Shown here one piece after another: positions 4,075 to 60,112 of a stretch of DNA of 64,000 nucleotides; within the stretch, counting starts at the first letter, position 1; every line of letters begins with the position of its first letter. This DNA is from Candidatus Altimarinota bacterium. Its GTDB lineage: Bacteria > Patescibacteriota > Gracilibacteria > 1-14-2-50-48-13. Made by a program: the position numbers and the translations under genes. Location: contig JBKBWQ010000001.1 in the NCBI GenBank assembly GCA_046314355.1, positions 32,001 to 96,000 of the forward strand, read 5' to 3'. Under the pieces are notes generated by a model that ran no database searches, had not been told where the DNA came from, and saw only the letters and a program-made list of their open reading frames with translations.

Positions 4075-4349
4075 AGCGCCATACCGGCTATCACCCGGGA
4101 ATTCAAATTATTGATGCGCTGAAAGAAAAGCCATGAACCACTCGCACGCGCTCGGGTACATGGTAAGACCTTTCCGGAGTTTATGTCTCTCCGTGAACAA
4201 AAAAATTAAGTACAGCTCACTGGTGGTACCTCAGTGTACCATTCGCTATCGCTCAGGTACACTGCACGCATATAAGCTTGCTTGCAGTGTACCCGAACGA
4301 AGTGAGTGGTTCACTGCCAGAAGCAAAGATTTCAGATCTTTGTTTTTTT
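4075..4349 (+). ncRNA. T-box riboswitch (Ile, AUC specifier; ultra-short Stem I type)
   Basis: CCGG-CTATCAC-CCGG hairpin with ATC at 4090-4092; Stem II GAAAG/CTTTC with internal loop; Stem IIA CGGAG/CTCCG; CTGG-TGGTACC at 4220-4230 pairing with CCAG 4317-4320; terminator hairpin plus T-run 4321-4349; lies directly upstream of ileS. Confidence 0.7.
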
Positions 4350-4352
4350 ATT

Positions 4353-4429
4353 GTCATTCTGAACTTGATTCAGAATCTAAAAATTCTGACTATCAATGTT
4401 CTTAGATTCCGGGTCAAGCCCGGAATGAC
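4353..4429. repeat. GTCATT...AATGAC palindromic REP-like doublet
   Basis: GTCATTCTGAACTTGATTCAGAATCT (4353-4378) and inverted partner AGATTCCGGGTCAAGCCCGGAATGAC (4404-4429), each a hairpin. Confidence 0.7.
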
Positions 4430-4487
4430 ATGCAGCTAGCAGTCTCATCGCGTTGACGCGACTTACTTACTCAATTACTTGAGCCAT

Positions 4488-10483: not shown

Positions 10484-10491
10484 GGCTTTTT

Positions 10492-10768
10492 CTTTTGTAA
10501 CCAAAAGAAACAAAAGTTTTGGGGGAGGAGAAAAGCGTCTAGCAGGATTCCGTGAGATCTACATGTGATCAGACGCTTCTCCTACCCCAAACCCCCAGGG
10601 ACGGTGAGGTCTAGATAAAGACTCGAGTTACTAGTTACTAGTGACTGTCACTAGCCACTAGTAACTATGCACCCTGACATGTAGCTGAGATACATGTCAG
10701 GGCTCGGGGAAGGCCTATGAGTGCCTATCCCCCTGAGAAGGGGGACCCAGGGGGGTTGAGCCCGAGAA
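10492..10768. repeat. Structured intergenic repeat element, copy 2
   Basis: Same block order as 2743-2993, with different loop sequences and a heptamer-repeat insert. Confidence 0.85.
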
Positions 10769-10984
10769 AATATGAACTGCGGGATCCAAACACAAAAGTT
10801 TCGGAAATGCTTTCACTTAAGCCAAAAATAATAAAGAGTAATTTTATTGCGTCGCATTATGGTACTGCCCTTATTTCTGTCAATTCCTTTTCCCCGCATT
10901 TTCCATATATATCTGTAAAATAAATTGAGTTTCCTGTAAAAAGCAGGTACTATCTTTACCGTTCTATTCATATAACCCGATTGC

Positions 10985-22376: not shown

Positions 22377-22393
22377 AAAAATACTTTTTTTTC

Positions 22394-22444
22394 TTGCCAA
22401 TGAAAACGAATGGTATGTATAATGGTGATGAAAATATTACCATT
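22394..22444 (+). promoter_or_regulatory. Promoter with overlapping inverted repeat (candidate operator)
   Basis: TTGCCA-18 bp-TATAAT; AATGGTGAT-N6-ATTACCATT at 22421-22444. Confidence 0.5.
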
Positions 22445-22461
22445 TTTCTTCCCAACTGCCT

Positions 22462-23094
22462 ATGATGATTTACACCTCAGCAAGACCCGTACAGACACAG
22501 ATGATTATAAAGACCACCTCAGACCGCGTTTACCGTTTTCTAAGGGACTATTTTAATACTACAGGATATGCTCCCACAGTAAGGCAAATCATGCGGTATA
22601 TGGGACTAGGTTCTACAAATAGTGTCTACAAACACCTTAAAAAACTTGAACGTGAAGGAAGGATTTCCCGTACGACTACTGGAAAGATTATCCTTGGAGA
22701 ATCAAGCAGCCAAGCTCTTCCATTTCTTGGAGGTATTAAGGCAGGATTTTCCGCACCCGCTGATGAAGCAGGAATGGACGTTCTTTCTCTTGATGAATTT
22801 ATGATTCATCATCCAGAGCGGACATTTCTTCTTACAGTCCGGGGAGATTCTATGCAGGATGCAGCAATTGTAGAAGGGGATTACGTTCTGGTTGAGAGAG
22901 GTGCCGCTCCTCACCATGGGCAGATTGTAGTGGCTGCTATCGATGGCGCATTTACCCTAAAGTACTTTATGAAGGATCAGGGAAAGACTTTTTTGAGAGC
23001 TGCTAATCCAAAGTATCCTGACTTTTATCCCTCTGAGGAGCTGCAGATTGTAGGAGTAGTGATTGGGGTTATGCGGAAGTGCTTTCGTTCATAA
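22462..23094 (+). CDS. LexA/UmuD-family S24 peptidase with N-terminal LexA-type wHTH
   Basis: GYAPTVRQI...S.NSVYKHLKKLE..G; Ala-Gly site IKAGF; catalytic VRGDSM and FTLK. Confidence 0.9.
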   Translation: MMIYTSARPVQTQMIIKTTSDRVYRFLRDYFNTTGYAPTVRQIMRYMGLGSTNSVYKHLKKLEREGRISRTTTGKIILGESSSQALPFLGGIKAGFSAPADEAGMDVLSLDEFMIHHPERTFLLTVRGDSMQDAAIVEGDYVLVERGAAPHHGQIVVAAIDGAFTLKYFMKDQGKTFLRAANPKYPDFYPSEELQIVGVVIGVMRKCFRS

Positions 23095-23106: not shown

Positions 23107-24348
23107 ATGTATTCTGATACATCCAGCTGTATATTTCATGTAGATGCTGATTCTTTTTTTGCATCAGTTGCAAGAGCAAGGGATCCTTCTCTCTCAGATA
23201 AACCAGTCTGCGTGGTGGCAGGAGAGAGAGGGTGCGTCCTTGCTGCTACCTATGAAGCCAAGAAGCTCGGTATACATACAGCAATGCCCTATCACCAGGC
23301 AATAAAAATACTGCCACTATATAAAGCTTATTATGTACCTGCTCACTTCAGAGACTACGCACAATATTCTGATATGATGTTCCGAATACTCAGGGAGTAC
23401 TCTCCGCAGGTGGAAGAGACCTCTATAGATGAAGGGTATATGGATATGACTGGATGTGAAAAAATGCATGGAAAAAATTATTCTCAGATCGCTCAAATGA
23501 TACAAAGACGTATCAAACGTGACCTAGGGTTGCCGGTATCCTTTGGTATCGCATCCACAAGAATTCTGGCAAAAATAGCTTCAAAGAAATCCAAGCCCTT
23601 TGGAGTATTGAATATTTATCAGCAGAATATTAGAGAGTTTCTGGCAGGTACAACATATGAAGATGTACCTGGAATAGGAAGAAAAAGTCAGGCTCTTCTG
23701 ACGAGAAATGGTTTTCATACACCTCTGGAATTCTCGCTCACATATGAATCTATGTCACGCAGCCTCCTTGGGCAGCCCGGGACAGTACTTTGGAATGAGT
23801 TAAATGGACGATTGAGAACTCCAGTAGCTCTCAGTCATAGTATACCAAAATCACTGTCCAGAATAAGATCCTTCAAACTTACAAAGGATGTTTCATTTCT
23901 CAGATCAGAATTTATCCATCATGTACTGTTATGTACTTATAAGCTCCGTAAAAAAGGACTAGTTGCGAAACGTTTTTTATTTTATTTCAGAGATGCCAAT
24001 TATGAACGTCCAGGTAAAGAATATTCAGAAGAAATGCCGCATAATAGTGCTTTTAAATTTCTTAGTCGCTCTCTTCCAGATTTTCTACGTATCGCTGGGA
24101 GCGTAAATGCACGTTCTGTGGGAGTAGTATTTGTAGATCTCATACAAGACAAGGGAAGACAGCCCTCTCTTTTTGCTGAAGACAACCTTATCTTTAGACA
24201 AGAGGATTTTCTCAAGGCAGCAGACAAGATAAATGAAAAATTTGGGAAGTATACGGTGATCCCTGCATCGCTTGATGCTAAGATATTTTCAAGGGAGCCT
24301 TGGACGGTGGAGCTCTTGAGCGTGCCGTACCTTGGAGAAGTAAAATAG
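23107..24348 (+). CDS. Y-family DNA polymerase (DinB/UmuC-like)
   Basis: HVDADSFFAS, AATYEAK, SIDEGY, LAKIAS, VPGIG; clamp-binding QPSLF. Confidence 0.92.
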   Translation: MYSDTSSCIFHVDADSFFASVARARDPSLSDKPVCVVAGERGCVLAATYEAKKLGIHTAMPYHQAIKILPLYKAYYVPAHFRDYAQYSDMMFRILREYSPQVEETSIDEGYMDMTGCEKMHGKNYSQIAQMIQRRIKRDLGLPVSFGIASTRILAKIASKKSKPFGVLNIYQQNIREFLAGTTYEDVPGIGRKSQALLTRNGFHTPLEFSLTYESMSRSLLGQPGTVLWNELNGRLRTPVALSHSIPKSLSRIRSFKLTKDVSFLRSEFIHHVLLCTYKLRKKGLVAKRFLFYFRDANYERPGKEYSEEMPHNSAFKFLSRSLPDFLRIAGSVNARSVGVVFVDLIQDKGRQPSLFAEDNLIFRQEDFLKAADKINEKFGKYTVIPASLDAKIFSREPWTVELLSVPYLGEVK

Positions 24349-24350
24349 GC

Positions 24351-24594
24351 AAAAAAAACCAGCGAATTGATCATATATTCTATCGGCGTTAGGAACGAGT
24401 CGATATGTAGCTCTTAGAGCATGATGCTCTAAGGACAGTGAATATAGATAATTCTGCTGGTGCGGCACTCTTTTTAAAAGATTGTGCCAATATTCCTCTC
24501 TGAAAGGAAAAAAAGAGAGGATGAAGAATTTTTGTGTATGGATCAAAATAAATTGTCACGAGCAGGTTTTACCCTGCTCGTTCTAAGAAGATCC
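24351..24594 (-). ncRNA. Candidate structured ncRNA (~245 nt)
   Basis: Several nested stems, a minus-strand TTGACA-16-TAGTAT promoter at 24628-24601 and a U8 tract after the last stem; no credible ORF. Confidence 0.5.
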
Positions 24595-24708
24595 GAGGGA
24601 ATACTAGGACTTTTTTAAAAAATGTCAACTATTCTTGCCGTAGGTAGAAAAAATGGTAAAAATGTATAACGTATGTTACAATACTAAGATATATTTTCAT
24701 ACATACAT

Positions 24709-26895
24709 ATGGCATCTCTAGAGGAAACACTAAATGCAAAAAGACAGGCTGCTGAAGAGACTAAACAAAGTCTTCAGGAGACTTTAAAGATAAAACGTGC
24801 AGAAAAGATGAAAGAGCAGGAAGACAACTTGAGGATAGAAATTGCATCTTTGGAATCGCATATTCTTGAACTTAAAAAAGCAGTAGAAAAAAATGCTCTT
24901 CCAAGAGCTTCAGAAGATCTAGAGAAAGAAGTAAATGAAAAGAATGAAGGAGTGCTCACAATGAAAAATGAATTGAAAGAAGTCCTCAGCAGTATAAAAA
25001 AGTTGTATGAAGATAATCGTGATTTGCTCCCAAATTTAAAAAAACCTTCTGACCTGAGACATCATAAAGAGTATCAGAATACGGATGAAATCCAGAATCT
25101 TATGGAAACATACAATGGTTTCATAAGTAAAATTACAGAGAAGAAAGCTGTAAAAGAAAAACTTAGTGAAGCGAAAAAAATAGAAGAAACTTTACCAACT
25201 CGTGAAGAAGCAGAAAAAGATCTTTATGCACAGATTGAATTAGCAGAAACAGCAGTACTGCTTCTCAAAGAACAGCTTCCTGAAGAAAAAGTAAAAAAGC
25301 AGTCTGAGCTGGCAGCTCTTCTCGAGGATAAGGTGAGTGCTATGTCAAATTATCCGCAGCATATAATTAAAAATCTTAAGTTCTGGCAAGGTGCATCTCT
25401 AAAAGACATGGAACAAATGCTTCCGGAAGAATATTTTGTATACCTTGAAAAAGATGGGTACGGCAGGGATTTTGTCACTAATGCCATGAAAGAAGCAGTA
25501 CAAAATGTGATGAAAAAATATAATATTTCAAAAGAGATGGCTGAAACAAGGGCATTTATAGAGGAGACAGAATATACGGAGAAAGATAGAGAAATAATTA
25601 GCGAAAGAGGTAAAAAAATAATAAAAGAAATGGAAGAAGTAAATGATCTTCTAAAGGAAGAAATTAAAAAAAATAAAGTTGATACAGACTATAGTATGTC
25701 ATCTGACCCTATGACTACCTACTTCATTTCACTTGATCTCTTTAAAGGGTATATCAATAACTATAATGGCGGTACAAAGTCTTTTCTTGAACAAAAATTT
25801 CGTGAGCTGAAGGATATACTCTATGGCAATACTCAGCAGAATGTTCCTAAAAAAAGCAGTATAGAAAATACCTTCTCAGGATTAGAGAACTTGCTAAACG
25901 AAATAAAGACTGCACATGAGCAGAATAATAAAGAACATCCTTTATTTATAAAAAATGCTTTAAACGACGATAAAAATGTGACACGTAATTATTTACAAAA
26001 AGAATATGCATACTTAAATGAGAACTTTACTACACCGGCTCAAAGCACAAATTGGTATAAAGATGCCAGAGAAAAAGGAAAAAATAGACCTGCAATCCTT
26101 GCAGAAGTAGAAAAGATTGAACAAAACATTAATGGTTTTACAAATAAGATGGAAGATGAATTCTCCAAACTCCCTGAGTATCTTGATACTGCCAAAGAAC
26201 AAGACGAACTGGAACAAAAATTTGGGAAGGATCTAGTCTATGAGGAAAAGCAGCTTCAAGAGAGTCTACAGCATTCTAAAAAAGCTTTAGGAGAAATGAT
26301 AAAACTTCAAGAAACTTTGAAGGAGGTAAAGAATGTCAAAGTAAGGATTGGATCCTATGGTTTTGAAGTGGCAGATCCTGTCATCAGCTGGAATTTTGAT
26401 GAAGCTGAAAAAAAGGAAAGAGACTTGCAGCAGAATCGTCTGAAGATTGAACAGAGAAAAGTGTCTTTTTTTCAGAGAATCTTTGGAGGGGAAAAGAAAA
26501 AGGCTCTTGAGCTTCAGGAAGTGGATGCATCACTTGTAGAAATAAAAAATGAGAAAGAAGAAAGAACTAAAAAAATCACTAAAGAAAATAAGGAGAGAAA
26601 GAGAGTAAAGGAACTGATTGAGCCAATAAGTCAGTATGTGACTCCAGAATTTTTAAGAAGCAAACTACATAACTTAGATCTCAACGAGGCACACACCATT
26701 GATGAGATTATGAAGGCACTAGAAAATTTTTATACTGAAAAAGCTTCTGAGAATTTTGCCAGTGAAAAATCTGAGGCACTAAAAAAGCTGAATGGGATAA
26801 ATGAAGAGAAGAGACATATCAAAGAAGATCTAGATAACTATGAGCGTAGTAAAGAGTATTTAGAATTTGAATATGCAGTAAAAAGAATGTATTAA
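24709..26895 (+). CDS. Large E/K-rich coiled-coil hypothetical protein (728 aa)
   Basis: Long ORF with heptad-like charged composition; no catalytic motif recognised. Confidence 0.8.
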   Translation: MASLEETLNAKRQAAEETKQSLQETLKIKRAEKMKEQEDNLRIEIASLESHILELKKAVEKNALPRASEDLEKEVNEKNEGVLTMKNELKEVLSSIKKLYEDNRDLLPNLKKPSDLRHHKEYQNTDEIQNLMETYNGFISKITEKKAVKEKLSEAKKIEETLPTREEAEKDLYAQIELAETAVLLLKEQLPEEKVKKQSELAALLEDKVSAMSNYPQHIIKNLKFWQGASLKDMEQMLPEEYFVYLEKDGYGRDFVTNAMKEAVQNVMKKYNISKEMAETRAFIEETEYTEKDREIISERGKKIIKEMEEVNDLLKEEIKKNKVDTDYSMSSDPMTTYFISLDLFKGYINNYNGGTKSFLEQKFRELKDILYGNTQQNVPKKSSIENTFSGLENLLNEIKTAHEQNNKEHPLFIKNALNDDKNVTRNYLQKEYAYLNENFTTPAQSTNWYKDAREKGKNRPAILAEVEKIEQNINGFTNKMEDEFSKLPEYLDTAKEQDELEQKFGKDLVYEEKQLQESLQHSKKALGEMIKLQETLKEVKNVKVRIGSYGFEVADPVISWNFDEAEKKERDLQQNRLKIEQRKVSFFQRIFGGEKKKALELQEVDASLVEIKNEKEERTKKITKENKERKRVKELIEPISQYVTPEFLRSKLHNLDLNEAHTIDEIMKALENFYTEKASENFASEKSEALKKLNGINEEKRHIKEDLDNYERSKEYLEFEYAVKRMY

Positions 26896-43550: not shown

Positions 43551-43716
43551 AGTAATTGAGTAAGAAGGGGAATTAGGTAAGAAAGTAATTGGGGCTCGTT
43601 ATTGGGCTCTTATCATTGGACGCAATAATTGAGCTCAATTATTCGAGCCTAATTATGTGCCCCAATTATTGAGCCCAATAATTTTCGCCCAGTTATTGAG
43701 TCTATTTCCCGAGCCT
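43551..43716. repeat. Degenerate short tandem repeat array (8-mers, then inverted 12-14-mers)
   Basis: Units like AATAATTGGGCTC / GAGCCCAATTATT around the perfect palindrome AATAATTGAGCTCAATTATT. Confidence 0.7.
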
Positions 43717-60025: not shown

Positions 60026-60112
60026 GGGCAAATGGCGAAATTGGTAGACGCACTAGCTTCAGGTGCTAGCGGTAGCAATACTGTGAGAGTTCGAATCTCT
60101 CTTTGCCCACCA
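60026..60112 (+). tRNA. tRNA-Leu(CAG)
   Basis: Acceptor GGGCAAA/TTTGCCC-ACCA; D-loop GG; anticodon arm CTAGC-TTCAGGT-GCTAG; long variable arm; GTTCGAATC. Confidence 0.95.

Follow-up and report, generated by a model that had tools for sequence, protein, structure and literature searches.

A candidate small RNA gene facing dinB in an uncultivated bacterium from a hot spring

The 360-nucleotide (nt) spacer that follows the lexA-dinB gene pair in an uncultivated hot-spring bacterium (Candidatus Altimarinota; contig JBKBWQ010000001.1 of assembly GCA_046314355.1) contains a stretch of about 245 nt that folds far more stably than shuffled sequence of the same kind, and that is bracketed on one strand by a promoter-like site and a run of U residues. 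Does this stretch encode an RNA, and if so, what might that RNA do so close to a DNA polymerase gene? The locus lies within a window of 64,000 nt, by which we mean the whole stretch of DNA that was analysed; positions below refer to this window unless they carry the prefix C1, which marks contig coordinates. The reading that we tentatively favour, with somewhat less than even confidence, is a single-copy small RNA (sRNA) gene that is confined to its genus or species, is encoded on the minus strand and has a length of about 245 nt. As judged from the coordinates, the candidate probably overlaps the 3' untranslated region (UTR) of dinB as a cis-antisense RNA. The sequence features listed in a preliminary description of the locus are confirmed, whereas the interpretations placed upon them fared unequally, as described below.

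Signals and structure of the dinB spacer

The spacer (24349-24708) separates dinB from an orphan gene of 728 amino acids (aa), and as both of these genes are encoded on the plus strand, the candidate converges on the former and diverges from the latter. Its putative 3' end at 24351 is 3 nt away from the dinB stop codon (24346-24348), in agreement with the convergence on a Y-polymerase gene proposed in the preliminary description. At the opposite end, a scan recovered the σ70-type promoter-like site that had been claimed for the minus strand, TTGACA-16-TAGTAT at 24601-24628, with 10 of 12 positions matching. This is the sole promoter-like site called on either strand between 24000 and 25000, while shuffles of this kilobase yield a mean of 2.5 sites at the looser threshold of 9/12. 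Based upon a 6-nt distance after the -10, a transcription start is predicted near 24594-24595, and the first helix of the candidate likewise begins 6 nt downstream of the promoter-like site. An sRNA gene would generically be expected to have its own promoter just upstream of its structured part, and this feature is present here as a sequence signal only. An imperfect palindrome of 36 nt centred on TTTTTT/AAAAAA (24599-24634) is superimposed upon the site; its 22-nt arms (24599-24620 and 24613-24634) are 77% complementary and span the minus-strand promoter precisely from its -10 to its -35, a position in which the palindrome may be an operator.

Promoter-like sites of this quality are real signals in this genome, given both their intergenic enrichment and their tendency to face genes. 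At a threshold of at least 10/12, they occur at 1.57/kb in intergenic (open reading frame-free) DNA vs 0.28/kb in coding DNA, and of the 296 intergenic ones, 204 have a gene start no more than 300 nt ahead of them. When a perfect -35 is demanded in addition, 78 sites are found in 188 kb of intergenic DNA vs 22 in 1431 kb of coding DNA, and gene starts within 300 nt are faced by 60 of the 78.

The structured part of the spacer also stands apart from shuffled sequence. A 250-nt fold of the minus strand reaches -81.6 kcal/mol, vs -44.7 ± 4.1 for 200 shuffles, none of which is as good (z -8.99), and the plus strand of the same stretch reaches -80.6 kcal/mol (z -5.90). In both the minimum free energy (MFE) and centroid structures, four independent domains stand side by side and fill 24358-24594, and this arrangement is unchanged when the flanks are included. 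All of the inverted repeats reported in the preliminary description were located by an inverted-repeat search, and the domains are given here as they occur on the minus strand. Domain 1 (D1, 24540-24594) consists of a GGAUC/GAUCC helix closing a G+C-rich hairpin of 9 base pairs (bp) with a 6-nt loop, the inner repeat being ACGAGCAGG/CCTGCTCGT at 24558-24581. It is the better defined on the minus strand, where its fold (-22.7 kcal/mol with z -5.27, unmatched by any of 200 shuffles) has an MFE share of the ensemble of 0.81, vs a share of 0.24 for its plus-strand fold (-18.3 kcal/mol, z -4.17). D1 is followed by an A/C/U-rich linker of 18 nt (24522-24539), which is unpaired in both modelled structures and is a candidate seed for base pairing. 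Hairpin 2 (H2, 24494-24521) has 8 bp of UCCUCUCU/AGAGAGGA and a 12-nt U/C-rich loop; the repeat TCCTCTCT/AGAGAGGA found at the same positions is 100% complementary, and the hairpin has z scores of -2.89 on the minus strand (3 of 200 shuffles as good) and -3.1 on the plus strand. Hairpin 3 (H3, 24464-24488), formed by GGCAC.../...GUGCC with an inner A-U helix, reaches -9.7 kcal/mol and z -3.32 (2/200 shuffles as good), with a plus-strand z of -3.25.

Domain 4 (D4, 24358-24461) is a three-way junction of 104 nt closed by ACCAGC.../...GCTGGT, with a lower helix of about 21 bp containing bulges, one arm that pairs perfectly over 9 bp around a 3-nt loop, and another arm of 5+4 bp; the arm repeat CTTAGAGCAT/ATGCTCTAAG lies at 24413-24433. 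The TATCGGC/GTCGATA arm of the preliminary description is present, although in the fold it is interrupted by internal loops and comprises 5 bp and a further 4 inner bp. D4 reaches -36.6 kcal/mol on the minus strand (z -6.23, with none of 200 shuffles as good) and -38.2 kcal/mol on the plus strand (z -5.0). Overall, both strands give high significance for D1 and for D4, and only moderate significance for the two hairpins.

On the minus strand, D4 is followed directly by a U-run (24351-24357, or 8 U counting the last helix pair), which is the putative RNA end. On the plus strand, there is an A-run ahead of D4 and no T-run behind it, so that only the minus strand has a terminator-like layout. The promoter-like site and the U-run thus occupy the same strand and exactly bracket the structured stretch, with promoter, first helix, last helix and U-run all in register. 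When the 115 nt upstream of each intergenic T8 run in the genome were folded, 36 runs abutted a domain of at most 60 nt, 8 abutted a longer domain and 32 abutted none, and D4 was the most stable of the 8 long (>60 nt) domains (-34.9 kcal/mol in that survey). For transcription arriving from dinB, the only plus-strand terminator-like site called before the next gene is a weak one of 5 bp (3 G-C) followed by CTCTTTTT at 24455-24467. As this site is inside the candidate, a dinB transcript would overlap at least D4, judging from the coordinates.

Known families, relatives and points against an RNA gene

No known RNA family was matched at the locus. In a search of Rfam 15 at gathering score, the sole match in the window was a transfer RNA at 60026-60109, and a search of 24200-24800 at E ≤ 10 returned five junk matches of 14.7-21.1 bits vs gathering scores of 49-96. 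The preliminary description had likewise seen no signature of signal recognition particle (SRP) RNA, RNase P RNA or transfer-messenger RNA (tmRNA). The latter two are encoded elsewhere, RNase P RNA at C1:1260698-1261138 (149 bits) and tmRNA at C1:790733-791154 (422 nt, 105 bits with the Rfam model; ARAGORN reports none). The Rfam models of 6S, small SRP and large SRP RNA found nothing in the genome at E ≤ 1, the small SRP model gave no match in 31 class genomes, and the models of the conserved SRP helix-8 core (RF00169, RF01854, RF04183) gave none at the candidate locus even at E ≤ 10. A loose search with a helix-8 pattern yielded nothing convincing. Elsewhere in the genome, the Bacteroidales small-SRP model RF04183 gave one weak match of 19.2 bits (C1:1611939-1612037, minus strand), and these model searches suggest that the class may have a diverged SRP RNA. 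The candidate is single-copy in its genome according to blastn, the covariance model and nhmmer searches with each domain. Full-text searching of the literature, which is not searchable by sequence, did not turn up an account of an RNA like this one beside dinB, and no RNA run was listed among sequencing runs containing the candidate stretch, the sole listed run being DNA, possibly from the source sample.

A number of observations weigh against the interpretation of this locus as an sRNA gene, and the first of these concern its distribution. A DNA search found the candidate in 0 of 60 relatives. A covariance model of limited reach (R1), built from the candidate's single sequence and fold, matched 0 of 3 genomes of the family even at E ≤ 10 and gave only 8 weak matches in 100 genomes of the class (best 22.7 bits) and 2 in 150 genomes of the phylum. 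Two alignments of the weak class matches were read, and both contain large deletions, the best match exchanging 92 nt of D4 for 4 nt; from these two alignments, the weak matches were rejected as homologues and judged to be chance, the match in genome G155 scoring 20.3 bits. The search across related genomes that the preliminary description had proposed therefore provided chance-level matches only, and as there is no homologue, no covariation test is possible.

Nor does the neighbourhood of lexA-dinB in relatives point to a conserved association. DinB was matched in 15 of 40 relatives, with close matches only in G001 (44%) and G003 (43%), while searches of metagenome contigs and of genome contigs found 9 loci, all at 30-42% identity, and 22 loci, all distant, respectively. 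Both of the nearest orthologues keep the lexA-dinB pairing, yet neither locus carries the candidate element: at one of them dinB is followed by a 197-nt unstructured spacer (z -1.4) and then an unrelated gene, and at the other by a convergent gene with no spacer at all. With the element missing from the nearest loci, a conserved link to the SOS cassette is not supported, and the regulator of an SOS-like cassette envisaged in the preliminary description, which had itself pointed to lexA-dinB synteny as a check, finds no comparative support. Only the physical overlap predicted with the probable dinB 3' UTR argues for an SOS link. The genome also encodes a second, distant dinB paralogue (29% identity) at C1:787000-788139, approximately 2.6 kb from the tmRNA gene.

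Other points against an sRNA gene come from the candidate itself. Its complementarity to translation-start regions is no better than that of shuffles, the longest complementary run being 14 nt, a length also reached by 10 of 30 shuffles. Its structure is less exceptional when compared with the rest of the genome: in a G+C-corrected survey of the whole 1.69-Mb genome (389 ORF-free stretches, 2372 window-strands), the candidate's z scores of -2.29 and -2.24 place it just outside the best 40 of the 2372 intergenic window folds, which include ribosomal RNA, RNase P RNA, long perfect terminators and two dispersed palindromic repeat families. The region is accordingly structured, but not extreme for its own genome. 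Furthermore, G-U pairs number only 3 of 78 in the minus-strand fold and 4 of 73 in the plus-strand fold. With nearly all pairs being Watson-Crick, the structure carries no strand signal, and the scarcity of G-U pairs together with a near-equal plus-strand fold would be the pattern of DNA palindromes or of young sequence.

The signals at both ends are also open to question. The U8 claimed to follow the branched domain does follow D4 directly, but the 3' end was not called as a terminator by the standard scan, which is attributable to the stem next to the U-run closing a 104-nt branched domain, and the 45 nt next to the U-run contain no local hairpin (-2.2 kcal/mol). Among the intergenic T8 runs of this genome, 34 of 76 come after a local hairpin and 42 do not, so the U-run signal is suggestive only. 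At the 5' end, the candidate's promoter-like site belongs to the 18 of 78 strong sites that are orphans, some of which may be chance occurrences or may serve unannotated genes. Lastly, the genome is AT-rich and abounds in palindromic DNA and orphan motifs, and the locus was picked from many windows, which makes coincidence through selection bias a general argument against it. The undescribed noncoding RNA of the preliminary description is nonetheless the best remaining reading, having no Rfam family and a meaningful promoter signal, and it is at the same time unproven, with neither homologues nor covariation.

Several repeated or strongly folding sequences were encountered elsewhere in the genome. 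One is a palindromic element of approximately 85 nt with long terminal inverted repeats, resembling a miniature inverted-repeat transposable element (MITE), in the window at 4155-4464 (C1:36155-36464), with related copies at 9 loci, for example C1:1258988. A second dispersed repeat, found at 67 loci, is built from iterated AT-rich words, each about 12 nt long, that surround GAGCTC/GGGCTC cores, and it forms very stable folds, as near 43603 in the window (C1:75603) and at C1:744626-744875. The spacer at 10484-10883 (C1:42484-42883) contains long perfect palindromes worth -110 kcal/mol per 250 nt, and just upstream of this strongly folding spacer is an orphan promoter-like TTGACA-16-CATAAT on the minus strand (C1:42856-42883); from these sequence features, the spacer may be a second sRNA-like unit. 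A hairpin core, GCGTCAAACGC (or GCGTCGAACGC), recurs within terminator-like stems at no fewer than three unrelated loci (at least C1:1286577, 565365 and 29479).

Alternative explanations for the structured spacer

Among the rival explanations, the strongest, although still unlikely in our estimation, is that the stretch has no present function and consists of palindromic DNA in decay, for instance old terminators or the eroded remains of a mobile repeat, within a variable region that adjoins an orphan gene, with the surrounding motifs arising by coincidence in an AT-rich genome. In favour of this, structured palindromic DNA abounds in the genome, including the repeats at 9 and 67 loci, and several other spacers have better folds than the candidate. 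Neither T8 runs nor orphan promoter-like sites are uncommon, the stems consist of perfect Watson-Crick helices with few G-U pairs, and the candidate was found in none of the relatives searched, while the neighbouring 728-aa gene is an orphan as well. Decay, however, should erode helices, yet the four domains give a z of -9, and promoter, first helix, last helix and U-run are in register on a single strand. Neither the element nor any of its domains recurs in the genome, no direct repeats flank the element, and a DNA search found no match to it in phage or plasmid records. For the same reasons of copy number and flanks, a dispersed repeat or MITE was rejected as an identity for the candidate. 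It resembles the genome's dispersed palindromic repeats (MITE-like or resembling repetitive extragenic palindromes) in being a strongly folding intergenic set of near-perfect inverted repeats, and differs from them in that the element and its domains occur once.

Slightly less likely again is an element acting from the plus strand, either as the 3' UTR of the lexA-dinB mRNA or as a structured spacer in a co-transcript of dinB and the 728-aa gene, where it could provide exonuclease protection or processing sites, and where the minus-strand promoter would be a chance occurrence or weakly active. The near-equal stability of the plus-strand fold is compatible with this, as are the almost entirely Watson-Crick pairs and the slightly greater stability of D4 on the plus strand. 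Moreover, both flanking genes are on the plus strand and dinB has no strong terminator, so the spacer is probably transcribed on the plus strand anyway, and a 19-nt segment (24535-24553) could pair, at 84% complementarity, with 24689-24707, immediately ahead of the start codon of the next gene. That pairing, however, is absent from the MFE and centroid folds. None of the hairpins has a T-run after it on the plus strand, on which an A-run precedes D4, and the usual terminators of this genome are single long perfect hairpins with A-/T-runs as opposed to four domains. Such an element would also leave a well-placed minus-strand promoter unexplained, and neither of the two closest relatives retains the structure behind dinB.

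An element acting at the level of DNA, whether as sites for a dimeric protein or as hairpin or cruciform DNA for recombination, transfer or a single-strand origin, is considered very improbable. The symmetry of the structure between strands, the perfect palindromes of 9-10 bp and the 36-nt palindrome over the promoter would all be consistent with such a role. However, the palindromes differ from each other and thus offer no repeated motif of the sort expected for protein sites, the inverted repeat upstream of lexA does not recur at the candidate as far as can be seen by eye, and a Pfam scan found no recombinase, relaxase, replication or transposase gene among the neighbours. A replication origin or terminus was rejected, as the extremes of GC skew are near 300 kb and 1070 kb of the contig and the locus is at 56 kb. 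A retron msr-msd RNA was also considered and rejected: no reverse-transcriptase gene follows it directly on its own strand, the neighbours being dinB and a protein without a family, and no reverse transcriptase, defence or mobile gene was found beside the candidate with Pfam, PADLOC or PHROGs.

We regard it as still less probable that the transcript is an mRNA for a small protein. The claim that the stretch has no credible coding frame needs to be amended insofar as a 56-codon GTG frame exists at 24559-24389, together with a 33-aa TTG sub-frame, and a AGAGAGGA stretch is located a few nt ahead of the internal TTG. The substance of the claim stands in that the frame is without relatives: no match in 100 related genomes is better than a per-genome E of 0.002, which is chance level, and there is no PHROG match. 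The frame additionally passes through three stable hairpins, and the candidate has no coding signal. The Shine-Dalgarno-like motif is of little weight, as such motifs are rare in this genome, with GGAG found upstream of 64 of 1273 long frames vs a background of 3.9% and a small peak at -12 to -10, in a count that used crude starts (the first start codon of each frame).

The least probable explanation, a very diverged housekeeping RNA as suggested in the preliminary description, is very unlikely: 6S and SRP RNA are indeed unaccounted for by Rfam models in this genome, the small SRP model is blank throughout the 31 class genomes and the candidate is in a similar size range, but these RNAs (RF00013, RF00169, RF01854 and RF04183 being the models concerned) have paired 5' and 3' ends and form one long rod, with a central bubble in 6S, whereas the candidate has four side-by-side domains and no end-to-end rod pairing in the MFE or centroid structure, matches no SRP or 6S model even at E 10 and is not conserved in the family, class and phylum genomes in which a housekeeping RNA should recur, and a weak SRP-like candidate exists elsewhere at C1:1611939-1612037.

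Neighbourhood, possible action and significance

The genes around the candidate provide the context in which any function would be exercised. The Y-family DNA polymerase IV gene dinB (23107-24348, plus strand) was assigned through PF00817 (1.9e-46) and DNA polymerase IV models at approximately 1e-56, and directly upstream of it on the same strand is lexA (22462-23094; PF00717, PF01726, and TIGR00498 at 1.2e-43). The region preceding lexA (22390-22450) contains TTGCCA...TATAAT with inverted repeats around and after the -10, as read by eye, and these could be a candidate LexA box of the lineage; inspection by eye, without a motif model, found no counterpart of this inverted repeat at the candidate's promoter. 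On the other side, the 728-aa gene (24709-26895, plus strand) encodes a lysine- and glutamate-rich protein that has no family in Pfam, NCBIfam, PADLOC or PHROGs and no relative among genome contigs. Its predicted structure is of low confidence (pLDDT 0.56), and in a structure comparison against a protein atlas all look-alikes had TM < 0.25. The G+C content of the gene, 0.30-0.36, is mildly lower than the 0.38 of the genome. An extended -10-like TGTTACAAT can be read by eye ahead of it at 24674-24682, a place where the promoter scan made no call. The source genome measures 1.69 Mb and is 98% complete, and the sampled genomes of the phylum are small, at 0.7-2.0 Mb. A contig of a second assembly, which was made from the same sample and is not independent DNA, spans 23900-25100 without any difference, and the region is therefore not a mis-join.

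If the locus is an sRNA gene, the following sequence of events can be envisaged. RNA polymerase with a σ70-type factor would start near 24594 from TTGACA-16-TAGTAT, and the transcript would fold during its synthesis into D1, hairpins 2 and 3 and D4. The lower helix of D4 and the U-run would then bring most transcription to a halt at 24351-24357, leaving 3 nt to the dinB stop codon. In the opposite direction, the lexA-dinB mRNA would run into the RNA gene, as there is no convincing plus-strand terminator before it, and the RNA would presumably be perfectly complementary to the dinB 3' UTR. Acting in cis, a duplex with this UTR could affect how the operon mRNA is processed or how stable it is, the converging transcription could be a source of interference, and read-through of the atypical terminator could yield antisense RNA over dinB. 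The 18-nt linker and the U/C-rich loop of H2 could also pair in trans. For transcription, for both RNA ends and for each of these steps, we infer what would happen from the signals and folds described above.

How would such an RNA compare with those already recognized? Base-pairing sRNAs that terminate independently of Rho have their own σ70 promoter, a length of 50-300 nt, a seed between hairpins, a 3' stem with a U-run and a narrow phylogenetic range. The candidate shares a promoter-like site, the size, an unpaired stretch, a 3' stem with a U-run and the narrow range, and it is distinguished by a 3' stem that closes a three-way junction and by the lack of a target that stands out.

In terms of gene layout, a parallel can be drawn with sbrB of Staphylococcus aureus, which is a small unit opposite and downstream of lexA whose leaky terminator yields a lexA antisense RNA (PMC8745188). 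The likeness concerns layout only: both would be small opposite-strand units downstream of an SOS gene with a terminator beside its 3' end, and a candidate convergent unit abutting an SOS gene is indeed what is found here, the candidate ending at 24351 and dinB at 24346-24348. The neighbour of sbrB is lexA itself, whereas here it is dinB, the last gene of the lexA-dinB pair. The candidate is also longer, with four domains and a branched 104-nt 3' domain in place of a simple hairpin, and its transcription and read-through are predicted from sequence alone.

At its most ambitious, the candidate could be construed as a new SOS-linked riboregulator of a small-genome, uncultivated lineage, namely a multi-domain RNA whose three-way junction doubles as a terminator, which is placed back-to-back with dinB, which tunes lexA-dinB and damage-induced mutagenesis through convergent transcription and a 3'-UTR duplex, and which is itself a target of its own repressor via the promoter palindrome. 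We consider this full scenario improbable. A lineage-specific sRNA or cis-antisense unit, as opposed to a new class, is possible, and the locus is best described as an ordinary, unproven sRNA candidate.

As it stands, the candidate is a prediction from a single genome, with no family and no conserved lexA-dinB link, and its value is as a target for metatranscriptomics. The failure of the SRP and 6S Rfam models in this genome, and of the small SRP model across the class genomes, may be of wider use. Should the gene prove real, it would join a very short list of small RNA genes proposed for this uncultivated, small-genome hot-spring lineage, and it would illustrate an SOS operon overlapped at its 3' end by a converging RNA gene.

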